NCBI GenBank assembly: GCA_042408215.1
Contig: JAYFMW010000001.1
Location: 32,001 to 96,000 of the forward strand
Direction: 5' to 3'
Origin: Microcoleus sp.
GTDB lineage: Bacteria; Cyanobacteriota; Cyanobacteriia; Cyanobacteriales; Microcoleaceae
DNA length: 64,000 bases
Shown here: one piece after another, positions 11,363-17,278 of the stretch
Position numbering within the stretch: position 1 is the stretch's first letter
Layout: every line of letters begins with the position of its first letter
The notes under the pieces: generated by a model
The model's input: only the letters and a program-made list of their open reading frames with translations
Database searches by the model: none
What the model was told of the DNA's origin: nothing
Position numbers and translations under genes: made by a program

Positions 11363-11554
11363 ATAAAATAGTTTACAAAATGATTAAACTCAGCGAGACT
11401 GGCAAAGCCCGCTGATTTTCACAACCAGACCAAACCAGACGTGAGTTATTTTTAACAAATTACCTGATCTTATTCTACTCTGAGCTTCTAGGGCACCGAT
11501 CGACCCTTCGAGATCTCAACGGTAAAGCCCAATCTAATTCATCACAGATACCAT

Positions 11555-13258
11555 TTAACCCGGTAAAACTTGGTTGTTACTACCAAATTCTACTATGTAT
11601 TGGGGTGTATCCTCCCCAGCCTCAACCAAAGTTAAGGCGCTTAACGACTTCAACAGAATGTTGATTGCGCCGTTCCAATCCCTATCGATGATGTGTCCGC
11701 ACTCTGGACACTTAAACGTCTTAGAGCCACCGAGCTTTTTGTGGGCGTGCCCACATTTCGAGCAAGTCTTTGAAGTATATTCTTCGGTCACATCATGCAC
11801 GACAGAACCGCGCTTTTGCGCGTGAAACTTCAAGGTTTCCTTGAATCGGTAATGACCCCAAGACAACATACTCCGAGCGGTTTTAGACCGGATCTTGCGC
11901 TTCTTTCTGACCACCATTTGAGAGGTTTCAAAGGTTGGCAAAAAGATGTGCTTGTGCTGTTTGGTAAGGTATGCTGCAACGCGGTTATGAATGTCGTCAA
12001 TCAGGTTGGAAATCTTGACTCTGATTGACTTGGCAAGCTTGCGTAACTGCCACCTTTTCCGCTTATTAGAATGCCCCTTCAAGGTTGTCCACTGCGACTG
12101 AAGTCGATCTAAGCGCTGGCATAACGTCGCAATTCGACCAATCCCCGCAGGGGCGAACTCCGTAATTGATTGCCCGTCAAACCCGGTCAGAAAAGTTCTC
12201 ACGCCCGGATCTAGTGCAATTGCGTTATCAAACTGGTTCGCTTCAATCTGCATTGGAACGGCAAAGCAGATAAACCATCGACCCCGATCTATTACTACGG
12301 AGAAATCAGAAGGCATTTCTGTGCAAAGTGGCTCCGAGGGATTGATCTGAGCTTTCCCAAGTTGCCGGGGGTAGGTTGTGTTGTTTGTCCAGTTGTCAGA
12401 TTGCAACTTGATGCTTTGAACCTGCTCGCGACACGACCGAAACCGAGGATTGCGCTTGTCTTCGCACTTTTTGAATGCATCATGAGCGTCTAGAACTGCC
12501 GCGCCTCTTGGATTGTAGGGCGTTTCCTTCACCCAATCTGGCGCAAGATCGTTCACAATCTTGCGTAATTGAAACGCGGTTGGTCGCTTGCTTTTGTCGA
12601 TCCAGCAATCTCGCAGATAGGCGATTGCCGTGTTATATGACCACCGACTAGCCGCGATCCACGAACGCCACGCCACTCTCACGGGTATTTCCGGGTAAAC
12701 TCGGATCTTCTTTGATTTGAGCTTTGTATTTTCGGAGTCCGTAGAGCCGGCAACTAAAGACGTGGACGACGGCAAGGATATCTTCAACCATCTCTCGTTC
12801 TGGAGATAGGTCAGAGCGGTTGAGAACCACGAGTTTGCAATCAAATTGGTCGCACACCCATTGGATGAGTTCGACTCCGAATCGGGCGAGTCGGTCTTTG
12901 TAGCTGACCACAATTTGCTCGACATCTCCCGACAATACTTGTCCCAGAACGGATAGTAAGCCTTTGCGTCGGTAGTTGAGTCCCGATCCGATTTCTTTGA
13001 TGACTTCTCCTCCTGGGAACAGACTTTGGAGATAGTCAGCCTGTCGGTTAAGGTCGAGTCGCTGCTTGTGGCTACTGACTCGGCAATAGAGCAAAGTCTT
13101 TCTGACTTTGGTGGACTTTGGATCGAGGACACTATCGATGTCGTAGCGTCGATGTCCAGCCGGAGTTCTAATTGTTGCGATGCGTCCTGACTTGTCCCAG
13201 AGCCTAAGCGTTTTCTCCGAGACTTGGAGGATTTGCATCGCTTCCCGTGGTGTGACAT
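11555..13258 (-). CDS. tnpB: IS607-associated TnpB with rearranged RuvC-II (Fanzor2/pro-Fanzor-like); true start uncertain
   Basis: ALDPGVRTF (RuvC-I), IFLPTFET (canonical Glu replaced), VTEEYTSKTC, CxxC...CxxC, DRDWNGAINI (RuvC-III). Confidence 0.88.
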   Translation of the reverse strand: MSHHGKRCKSSKSRRKRLGSGTSQDASQQLELRLDIDATTSIVSSIQSPPKSERLCSIAESVATSSDSTLTDRLTISKVCSQEEKSSKKSDRDSTTDAKAYYPFWDKYCREMSSKLWSATKTDSPDSESNSSNGCATNLIANSWFSTALTYLQNERWLKISLPSSTSLVAGSTDSENTKLKSKKIRVYPEIPVRVAWRSWIAASRWSYNTAIAYLRDCWIDKSKRPTAFQLRKIVNDLAPDWVKETPYNPRGAAVLDAHDAFKKCEDKRNPRFRSCREQVQSIKLQSDNWTNNTTYPRQLGKAQINPSEPLCTEMPSDFSVVIDRGRWFICFAVPMQIEANQFDNAIALDPGVRTFLTGFDGQSITEFAPAGIGRIATLCQRLDRLQSQWTTLKGHSNKRKRWQLRKLAKSIRVKISNLIDDIHNRVAAYLTKQHKHIFLPTFETSQMVVRKKRKIRSKTARSMLSWGHYRFKETLKFHAQKRGSVVHDVTEEYTSKTCSKCGHAHKKLGGSKTFKCPECGHIIDRDWNGAINILLKSLSALTLVEAGEDTPQYIVEFGSNNQVLPG

Positions 13259-13342
13259 AGCGAACCATAAAAAACGTTGTAGACTTACCTCATTCTACAA
13301 CGTCTTACCGGATAATTCCCGGAATGTCTAGAAATTGACAGG
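11562..13342 (-). mobile_element. IS607-family element (tnpA + tnpB)
   Basis: Serine recombinase plus TnpB; GGTAA at both junctions (11562-11566, 13341-13345) fits the GG core used by IS607; no GCGATCGC seen inside. Confidence 0.88.
12648..13268 (-). CDS. tnpA: IS607 transposase (MerR-like HTH + serine recombinase)
   Basis: VSEKTLRLWD..G.I..IRTPAGHRRY; YCRVSS; EIGSGLN..RKGL; YKDRLARFG; FSCRLYGLR. Confidence 0.95.
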   Translation of the reverse strand: MVRYVTPREAMQILQVSEKTLRLWDKSGRIATIRTPAGHRRYDIDSVLDPKSTKVRKTLLYCRVSSHKQRLDLNRQADYLQSLFPGGEVIKEIGSGLNYRRKGLLSVLGQVLSGDVEQIVVSYKDRLARFGVELIQWVCDQFDCKLVVLNRSDLSPEREMVEDILAVVHVFSCRLYGLRKYKAQIKEDPSLPGNTRESGVAFVDRG

Positions 13343-13345
13343 TAA

Positions 13346-13939
13346 TCAACCTCTAATCCAATTGAGCACTTGGCCAGCTTCGTCCAAGCAGCCACCAAAA
13401 CAGATAATCCCGTCTTCGTGGCCCGCCATCGCCAGAATTTTGCGATCGCCTAAATTCTCTTCCTCAAAAAGTCTAAACATTTCTAAGGCCATCCCAGGAG
13501 TGCCATAAGGTATCTCTTTTCTAGTAGTCGGAATCTTAAACAACAGTTGCCGCCAGAGTTTAGGGTTATGAACGTGAATGATCCCGCCCACATCATCTCT
13601 GTGAAAGTACAGCGCCGCGTGAGTCAGCGACTCAGAAGAAGCTGGTACAGGGCCACGACAGCCGAGGAAATTTTGTTCTAAGTCAAATTCGGTGACAGTA
13701 CAGTAGGATTCAGGCCCCATCCTTGGCAAGTGTGCCGTCTGGGTGCCTGAAATAATGAATTGGCAAGAATTTCCGAGTCTGACACTAACATTGCCAAAGC
13801 CGATCCCATTGTCGTAGACACCAATTAGTCCCCACTCGTGGAGCCGATCGCGCCACTCCATCAAATCTGCCATACTTTCGGCCACAGAGGGCTCTGCGTG
13901 CGTCCAGTCACAGCGGTACTTAACGACACCTTCATCCAT
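13346..13939 (-). CDS. Class II aldolase/adducin family protein
   Basis: GFGNVSVR, FIISGTQT, SSESLTH, IIHVH, MAGHEDG; start at MDEGVVKY. Confidence 0.88.
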   Translation of the reverse strand: MDEGVVKYRCDWTHAEPSVAESMADLMEWRDRLHEWGLIGVYDNGIGFGNVSVRLGNSCQFIISGTQTAHLPRMGPESYCTVTEFDLEQNFLGCRGPVPASSESLTHAALYFHRDDVGGIIHVHNPKLWRQLLFKIPTTRKEIPYGTPGMALEMFRLFEEENLGDRKILAMAGHEDGIICFGGCLDEAGQVLNWIRG

Positions 13940-15922: not shown

Positions 15923-17278
15923 TTGACACTCCTCGGCTATCAGGCACGAGGATTCTTGGTTCAGTCAGTCGGCTTGCCCGTTGATGCTACCACCAACGAG
16001 TAGAGGTCGTTCTGTCCCCAAGCGTTAATTTCGGTGTGCCCCACCGTATTTAAATTAATTCCTGTTTGCCTCAATCCTTTCGCCAGAATATTCAGAGCTG
16101 CATTGTGGTCACGATCTAAAACTGTACCACAACTGCAAACATGAGTTCTAGTTGATAGCGTTTTCTTAACACTATTGCCACAGGTTGAGCAATCTTGAGA
16201 AGTATATTGAGGAGCAACAGCAACTACTGTTTTACCGTACACTTTTCCAAAATATTCTAAATAATGATCAAGTCTGCGACCACGCTGCATCACTAATTGA
16301 TTTAGCAAGCTTATGGTTTTTCACCATATTTTTAACCTGAAGGTTTTCGTAGGCTACGAAATCGCTAGATTTCACCACGCACAACGCCGTCTTTATGGCG
16401 AAGTCTTTGCGTTGCCTACTGACTTTCAGGTGTTTCCTTCCTAACTTGTTAATTGCCTTCTTACGATTACTAGAACCTTTCTTTTTTCGGGAAACTCGTT
16501 TCTGTGTTCGCTTTAAAGCTTTTTCGCTTTTACGAAGATGCCGAGGGTTGGGAACCGTGTCACCGTCGCTATCAGTGTAGAAATGGTTTAAACCTACATC
16601 TATTCCAATAGCTTTACCTGTAGGAATAGATTCCTCTGTTCGTTCTACATTGATACAAAACTGAGCATAATACCCATCGGCGCGACGAACTACCCTGATT
16701 CGCTTAATTTCATCAGGTGCGTAGAAGTGCAAATCTCTACTACCGAGTAACCTAAAGGTTCCAGCGGCAAAGCCATCTGTGAAAGTGAGACATCTTTTGT
16801 CTGTAGAAAGCGACCATCCTGATGTCTTATATTCTACGGAACGAGTTTGCTTTTTAAATTGTGGATATCCCTTTTTTCCTGGCTTCTTAGCTTTGCAATT
16901 CGAGAAAAAACGTAGGATAGCAAAAATGGCACGTTCAGCAGAAGCTTGACGTGCCATCGAGTTAAGTTTTCCTGCCCATTCAAACTCTTTGGCCATGATG
17001 GCGCATTGTTTGTATAGATCAACTAACTTAACTACTTGATTGTCGATCCAATATCTAAGAGTTTTGTTTCGGACAAATTGAGCTGTGCGGATCATTTCGT
17101 CTATGACCCGATATTGCTGCGCTTTGCCCTTTAACTTAAACTCTAGTACAATCATGCTATTATTCTCTCGTTTTTGCAGAGCATTGTATTCGCAAAGTGC
17201 ATATATTTAAGAATTGTTTACACTTTATAGAAATTAAAGCCGTCCTAGAAGGACGGGGCTTTAGACCCATGTTTTTCG
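15923..17278 (-). mobile_element. IS200/IS605-family (tnpB only) element
   Basis: Left end TTAC|CGAAAAACATGGG followed by the CCGTCCTTCTAGGACGG hairpin; right end hairpin CCTCG..CGAGG ending GTGTCAA. Confidence 0.85.
15961..17155 (-). pseudogene. tnpB: tnpB split by a frameshift near 16272
   Basis: GIDVGL, VAYENL, SISDAAWSQ in one frame; LEYFGKVYG, CSTC, DRDHNAA in the next; one extra base explains the shift. Confidence 0.9.

Follow-up and report, generated by a model that had tools for sequence, protein, structure and literature searches.

What does it mean when the frame of one gene stays open through nearly all of another? The question is raised by a stretch of Microcoleus sp. DNA (NCBI GenBank assembly GCA_042408215.1, contig JAYFMW010000001.1, positions 32,001 to 96,000; 64,000 nucleotides, hereafter the window), where an IS607-family element carries a serine transposase gene, tnpA, and a nuclease gene, tnpB, whose frame runs through tnpA. 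An initial annotation had proposed either an overprinted N-terminal domain of TnpB or programmed frameshifting to a TnpA-TnpB fusion. The first proposal is supported by stop depletion, residue conservation and alignment to the Fanzor2 protein ApmFz2; the second fits poorly with an open frame at codons 5-85, tolerated TnpA stops and ATGs of TnpB's own. The open +1 frame is real, clade-wide and under selection as protein, and it probably encodes a subdomain that was overprinted on tnpA and from which part of the N-terminal domain of Fanzor2 descends. The features concerned, in window coordinates, are as follows (aa, amino acids; ORF, open reading frame).

12648..13268, minus strand: tnpA, IS607 serine transposase, 206 aa, with MerR (PF00376) at aa 6-42 and Resolvase (PF00239) at aa 60-180
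11555..13258, minus strand: tnpB ORF, 567 aa, pro-Fanzor type, in the +1 frame relative to tnpA; best PDB match 9B0L, ApmFz2
12648..13258, minus strand: dual-coding stretch, 203 codons, 611 nt, holding the first WED strand and the start of a REC helix (TnpB aa 180-203)
12965..13258, minus strand: TnpB aa 1-98, an open, poorly conserved, Ser/Lys-rich leader, predicted to be disordered (predicted local distance difference test score, pLDDT, <30)
12890..12952, minus strand: +1 motif 1, P103-x-W105, helix 107-117 and L116-W-x-P/A-T, over TnpA aa 106-126
12821..12835, minus strand: +1 motif 2, N142-S143-W144-F145-S146, over TnpA KLVVL, aligning with N82-S83-W84 of the ApmFz2 RuvC-R segment
12203..12211, minus strand: RuvC-I motif D350-P351-G352
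11783..11785, minus strand: relocated RuvC-II Glu, E492, aligned to ApmFz2 E467

The +1 frame of tnpA in the window and its homologues

The overlap was confirmed on the sequence: the tnpB ATG lies 10 nt past the tnpA ATG, no stop interrupts the +1 frame across 203 tnpA codons, and 13258 and 12925 are the only in-frame ATGs above the TnpB core, all as first described. The frame is open from 13294. The PFW...LW...SWFS pattern and Ser richness noted earlier were also found, with Ser at 20-23% in aa 1-180 versus 7% in the core. By Pfam, TnpA has the N-terminal MerR-like helix-turn-helix (HTH) and serine-recombinase catalytic domain of IS607 transposases, and TnpB matches OrfB_IS605 and the TnpB zinc ribbon PF07282 (aa 469-534). 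E492 and the RuvC-III residues R526-D527 are invariant among the aligned homologues.

The likelihood of an open frame arising by chance was estimated by drawing synonymous codons anew under an unchanged TnpA protein. With genome codon usage, 10.5 +1 stops were expected in the window tnpA and none was observed (P(0)=3e-7); with the codon usage of the tnpB core, 9.3 were expected (P(0)=3e-6), and with the already biased usage of the tnpA itself, 5.1 (P(0)=3e-3). The +2 frame of the same gene has 11 stops. Leu, Ile and Val codons ending in TA were found before a purine in 0/31 cases versus 5/25 before a pyrimidine. Chance or codon bias as the cause of the open frame was ruled out by this resampling together with the residue conservation described below.

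The initial annotation had suggested that stop depletion be sought across IS607 tnpA homologues, and it was found throughout the clade. We collected 206 loci from the genome of the window, a 151-genome sample of the phylum, and the best 80 loci each of a GTDB scan and a viral scan. After removal of 19 loci (13 duplicates, 4 frameshifted and 2 partial), 187 loci with 189 tnpA hits were scored, and groups were assigned by the RuvC-I motif of the downstream TnpB, independently of the overlap. All 129 elements of the DPG type lack a +1 stop in tnpA codons 86-190, where 964 were expected, and 109/129 lack one in codons 26-190; at 80% TnpA identity the 129 fall into 73 clusters. These elements come from cyanobacteria, from records titled Parachlamydia, Desulfobacterales and Poribacteria, and from viral contigs, including metagenome-assembled genomes of giant viruses; the frame stays open even in viral contigs of 31-36% GC, where the +2 frame has 21-34 stops. 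None of the 8 elements of the D[LIV]G type is open, 89 +1 stops being observed where 78 were expected. The frame is open in 18 of 20 elements whose TnpB did not match the RuvC-I motifs and in 6 of 9 on contigs too short for tnpB, and two tnpA hits with tnpB on the opposite strand have 18 and 27 +1 stops. The free accumulation of stops that would have spoken against a coding role was thus not seen among DPG homologues. The codon choice first seen in the window is also general: xTA codons stand before a purine in 1/2396 cases in DPG elements versus 70/157 in D[LIV]G elements, and before a pyrimidine in 251/1490 cases in the DPG type.

The frame closes in tnpA genes that have no detected tnpB. 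Among 21 such genes, 19 have 3-15 stops, one has a single stop and one is open. Three of them (L074, L075 and L088) have 9-12 +1 stops and are nested among overlap elements (support 98 by the Shimodaira-Hasegawa-like approximate likelihood ratio test, in a quick TnpA tree). The one open gene belongs to L039 (1986-3490), where an insertion that codes for an apparent reverse transcriptase splits an overlap-type tnpA/tnpB pair at about tnpA codon 164; by eye, the protein resembles that of group II introns. In five loci (L074, L075, L088, L091 and L205), an overlap-clade tnpA retains an open TnpA frame with no tnpB in the 2.5 kb fetched downstream; judged from the sequences, these genes may be solitary or domesticated serine transposases. 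Conversely, the +1 frame outlasts TnpA: 16/129 DPG elements have a stop in the TnpA frame while the +1 frame is intact over codons 86-190, and within those codons a TnpA stop occurs in 7/129 versus a +1 stop in 0/129.

Selection on the +1 protein was examined residue by residue in 67 representatives and 29 non-overlap controls, against a null in which TnpA residues were fixed and stops forbidden. Two islands exceeded this null. In the first, the observed and null frequencies were 0.84 and 0.18 for P103, 0.97 and 0.45 for W105, 0.84 and 0.33 for S113, 0.93 and 0.42 for L116, and 0.69 and 0.20 for P119; in the second they were 0.93 and 0.33 for S143, 0.96 and 0.38 for W144, 0.90 and 0.28 for F145, and 0.84 and 0.32 for S146. 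P103, W105, S143 and W144 occur in only 0-7% of the controls. At TnpA positions 106, 146 and 147, conservation among the representatives is higher for the +1 residue than for the TnpA residue on the shared codon (P103, 0.84 versus 0.34; S143, 0.93 versus 0.51; W144, 0.96 versus 0.67). The invariance of S and W in alignments A3 and A4 is partly the result of how the sequences were chosen, since 12 motif-less elements and 23 elements without a clean C-terminal motif had been excluded; the unselected figures are those of the 67 representatives. Protein-level conservation is confined to about aa 99-180. Some relatives tolerate +1 stops up to about tnpA codon 80, and aa 1-98 has the character of a leader with little conservation.

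Two loci, L005 and L017 (G000 C5), share a 1-nt insertion that breaks both frames; it falls in the short C run coding the conserved +1 Pro of LWLP, and a sister copy (G000 C26:12140), judged by translation, has it too. The overlap may have made this run a slippage hotspot.

The extension and the Fanzor2 N-terminal domain

The initial annotation had likened the aromatic pattern of the extension to N-terminal extensions of Fanzor2-like proteins, a likeness now backed by sequence and structure alignment to ApmFz2 (L79, 9B0L). The N-terminal domain of ApmFz2, residues 53-130, was called unique among available TnpB structures; its RuvC-R segment (65-91) completes the RuvC fold, N82 and S83 touch the guide-RNA pseudoknot, and E467 is the relocated RuvC-II Glu (PMC11832414). 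The origin of this domain is not discussed in the accessible text of that paper. ApmFz2 is the best sequence and fold match to the window TnpB, sharing its catalytic arrangement and disordered front end. In both, the NSW segment has the same position and order with respect to the WED domain; when full-length profiles were aligned, the SW motif fell on residues 82-84 of ApmFz2, in line with the alignment of the core.

When the extension profile was compared with the N-terminal regions of the L159 family (mimivirus type; 109 proteins), hhalign gave a probability of 75% and an E value of 2.5e-5, with a score of 27 against 12 for the best of 40 shuffles; 19 single matches fell at E<0.01 versus 0 with reversed sequences. 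The motif [ST]W[FYL] is present in 94/109 of these proteins, for few of which the gene arrangement is known. In mimivirus-type extensions the spacing from LW to SW is about 12 aa shorter than in the window TnpB and, unlike the window element, the mimivirus-type loci recovered here lack the overlap and have tnpA on the opposite strand.

A first AlphaFold2 (AF2) model, built with 13 sequences, gave pLDDT <50 for aa 1-180 and no confident extension. In a second (aa 90-544, 81 sequences), helix aa 107-117 came near pLDDT 70 (block 67-71), and most of the extension was below 60. Superposed on 9B0L, model residues 12-455 matched chain residues 53-518 (Z 27.8, root-mean-square deviation 3.7, 409 aligned); with other TnpB structures the superposition begins only at model residue 88-90. 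The basic thumb of ApmFz2 (109-130) has no clear counterpart in the window TnpB, relative to which it aligned as an insertion. At the place of the thumb, just before the WED strand, L008, L038 and the C5/C26 copies in the genome of the window have a basic insert of 20-25 aa, coded in an extended tnpA 3' end.

Which came first? The TnpA frame is common to non-overlap IS607 elements, the +1 frame is open only in the DPG clade, and both are conserved, as in overprinting. TnpA is the older frame, since it is shared with non-overlap IS607 and is part of the serine recombinases. Twenty-four viral loci were compared, overlapped elements among them. In L229, L236 and L237 a stop-bearing TnpA remnant lies in frame beneath an intact extension, and L227 has the full motif set of the extension with TnpA undetectable. 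In L214-218 and L222 tnpA is on the opposite strand, and 5/6 of these keep the SWF motif. A single-protein scan of viral contigs found one partial locus. A quick tree of TnpB cores, with 7 D[LIV]G proteins as its root, groups the 9 split proteins into a single clade (support 95) nested within overlap lineages (93, 87, 85). Birth within the overlap, followed by release, appears to be the simplest account, since the reverse would require motifs to reappear on fixed TnpA codons. We consider it rather likely that the Fanzor2 N-terminal domain originated de novo within the +1 frame of an IS607 tnpA, joined the guide-RNA-binding surface, entered giant viruses while still overlapped, and was freed later by decay or movement of tnpA, and that bacterial pro-Fanzors are therefore 450-600 aa long and often truncated by annotation.

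Initiation of TnpB and alternative explanations

An in-frame ATG lies between the last stop and PFW in 67/67 representatives. In the 25 elements that open at codon 20 or later, the first such ATG is preceded in 52% by a sequence pairing at <=-5 kcal/mol with the anti-Shine-Dalgarno (anti-SD) motif; among background ATGs, such pairing was seen for 0/22 lying upstream of the last stop, for 8% of the 39 in the +2 frame and for 10% of the 92 in control genes. In 18 close relatives of the window element, codons 5-85 carry 0 +1 stops versus 55 expected; the codon-4 ATG is present in 14/18 and is the sole ATG above PFW in 12/18. These in-frame ATGs, the SD excess in late openers and the open codons 5-85 argue that independent initiation from a movable start, here ATG 13258, is likely to fit better than a frameshift fusion. 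One mRNA would then be translated from two separate starts, giving TnpA from ATG 13268 and, probably from ATG 13258, a 567-aa TnpB with aa 1-98 predicted to be a disordered leader; the extension would have arisen by overprinting on tnpA to become an N-terminal subdomain of the nuclease.

A programmed +1 frameshift, or transcriptional slippage, from tnpA would instead yield a TnpA-TnpB fusion, for example of the MerR-like DNA-binding domain to TnpB, and a single upstream ATG would suffice for it. The tolerance of +1 stops to about codon 80 in some relatives is compatible with a shift at codons 81-105, and two different elements in the genome of the window share the 1-nt insertion in the C run near codon 122. 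That site, however, lies below the conserved PFW motif. A late shift leaves the open codons 5-85 of the closest relatives unexplained, late-opening elements own an ATG, often with an SD, and the +1 ORF is intact despite a TnpA stop as early as codon 15-59 or a TnpA reduced to a remnant. We find such a fusion quite improbable, and a late frameshift as the cause of the open frame was ruled out by the 0 versus 55 stops and by the elements with TnpA stops. It is also unlikely that the extension is functional but that TnpB starts lower, at GTG 13132, ATG 12925 or a near-cognate codon, or that long and short forms coexist. Start positions do vary widely among relatives, a start at 12925 would retain LW and SWF, the parts kept in split Fanzor2s, and some ATG, GTG or TTG is found at codons 150-186 in 59/67 representatives. 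An SD-backed start occurs among those codons in only 10/67 and at no fixed place; 12925 lies below the strongly conserved P103 and W105, at a position where Met is not the usual residue, and the codon-4 ATG is often the only one above PFW. A near-cognate start near 12720-12790, which the initial annotation named, together with freely accumulating stops, as the outcome that would count against its reading, found little favour, the two TTGs at 12787 and 12775 having only weak SD pairing. Least credible is an untranslated by-product of TnpA codon bias or of an RNA or DNA signal. The +1 frames of non-overlap tnpAs do match the extension profile as well (E 1e-7 to 1e-24), so that +1 similarity alone proves nothing and similarity between +1 translations was not used as support; K121 and D123, at 60-80% in controls too, are largely by-products of the TnpA HKDR motif. 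A by-product does not account for xTA codons avoided only before purines, for Trp, Pro, Ser and Phe conserved beyond stop avoidance, for closure of the frame in tnpA copies without tnpB, or for a TnpB core that itself begins inside tnpA.

For the preferred account, an overprinted and separately initiated extension that gave rise to part of Fanzor2, several observations count on the other side. Each scan kept the 80 best TnpA matches, which favours close TnpAs and leaves few controls, and kin are not independent. The presence of an ATG is only modestly above chance (64/64 versus 59.1 expected in the TnpA-coded part), and ATG 13258 has no clear SD (-2.2), which also favours a lower start. S143 is replaced in several cyanobacterial members (FWF, YWF or LWF for SWF), SWF is altered or lost in some viral members, and PFW is missing from most split, mimivirus-type extensions. 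A PDB search with just the extension profile gave no hit to 9B0L at E<=10, and the superposition on 9B0L rests partly on weak coordinates, given the low AF2 confidence in most of the extension. No TnpA remnant was detected under split Fanzor2 extensions, and an approximately unbiased test does not reject a split giant-virus clade outside the overlap lineages (p 0.40).

The element and its relatives

Three further features describe the element itself.

11545..13364, minus strand: IS607-family element, about 1.82 kb, without terminal inverted repeats, ends accurate to +/-1-3 nt
11545..11720, minus strand: structured RNA predicted at the right end (reRNA/omegaRNA), which overlaps the 3' end of tnpB
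13292..13297, minus strand: possible -10 box, spotted by eye in the left end some 25 nt before the tnpA ATG

A near-identical copy spanning 11545-13363 was found beside other flanks in one contig from public runs, with 2 differences in 1819 nt and the frame intact, and this rules out an assembly artefact as the cause of the open frame. The empty site, with its joint at 11547/13365, was found in genome G152 and in three public runs; the right end occurs beside other flanks in runs X4 and X12, the left end in three runs, and the right end is conserved in 9 relatives. The element is an intact unit of about 11545-13364 that appears to have moved recently. As expected of IS607, tnpB lies downstream of tnpA in a mobile unit that is discrete, by the empty site and the second insertion site, and lacks terminal inverted repeats. 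The junctions suggest a CT/TG crossover core rather than GG; the right junction in the window is 7 nt shorter than in run X12. These 7 nt of target DNA, missing at 11543-11547 by comparison with X12 at the same element end, suggest a small deletion after insertion. The insertion hit the final codons of a gene of the class II aldolase family (PF00596; 13346-14146, minus strand), whose stop now lies within the left end of the element and whose last few residues differ from those of the empty allele.

The right-end RNA folds with a z-score of -4.1, none of 200 shuffles being equally stable; good folding of the tnpB 3' end is the expectation for a right-end guide RNA. No Rfam match was found for it. 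The TA..T-like hexamer of the possible -10 box recurs in relatives; a promoter scan reported only a weak internal site and not this hexamer. A 13-nt inverted repeat at 13271-13306 flanks the hexamer and the leader just above both start codons, and folding of the 5' mRNA region is no better than that of shuffled sequences. Elsewhere in the window, at 15961-17155 on the minus strand, what appears to be a frameshift divides a second TnpB, of the ordinary type, into ORFs of 295 and 115 aa.

The element belongs to a known group, the pro-Fanzor IS607 elements, whose signature was described by Yoon et al. (10.1101/2023.08.09.552727) and in PMC13565253. Its TnpB has the pro-Fanzor/TnpB2 features of DPG, a RuvC-II Glu next to the zinc finger, a C4 zinc finger and the RuvC-III RD. 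Like the pro-Fanzors (TnpB2) of cyanobacterial IS607 in Yoon et al., it has an IS607 TnpA partner, DPG at RuvC-I, a C-terminally shifted RuvC-II Glu, a cyanobacterial host and a structured right end overlapping tnpB. Neither an N-terminal extension nor dual coding in tnpA is described in the accessible text of that work (10.1101/2023.08.09.552727; PMC10711439). With canonical IS607 elements (IS607, IS1535, ISC1926; PMC6188088, PMC3673617) it shares the order tnpA-tnpB, a serine transposase with an N-terminal HTH and the lack of terminal inverted repeats. The two ORFs of IS607 elements often overlap (PMC6188088, PMC3673617), but in the window the overlap spans the whole of tnpA, whereas the 8 canonical D[LIV]G elements have 5-16 +1 stops in codons 86-190 and a tnpB ORF that, where located, opens at about codon 195-274. 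Term searches for a whole-gene overlap found none in the accessible text of 10.1101/2023.08.09.552727, PMC10530073, PMC13565253, PMC10711439, PMC10691335, PMC3627910, PMC3673617, PMC4058570 or PMC6188088. No such overlap is described in the literature as searched; ORF drawings in ISfinder, TnCentral, subscription papers or supplements may show it.

Database versions of pro-Fanzor nucleases often lack the extension. In five clusters the NCBI calls are mostly 295-415 aa long and mostly start below tnpA. In the plasmid copy of Nostoc PCC 7120 the annotated gene starts directly below tnpA, with the frame open 187 codons further up, and a 375-aa NCBI protein in the cluster of the window ORF would, if both end at the same place, begin at about aa 193, downstream of the first predicted WED strand. 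Since database entries often lack the extension, screens of pro-Fanzors as editing tools may have used truncated proteins. The two ATGs 10 nt apart may couple the output of transposase and nuclease. More broadly, the element would offer a traceable case of overprinting, in which a structured, RNA-contacting segment arose inside an older enzyme gene and living intermediates persist, and it provides a candidate origin for the N-terminal domain of Fanzor2.

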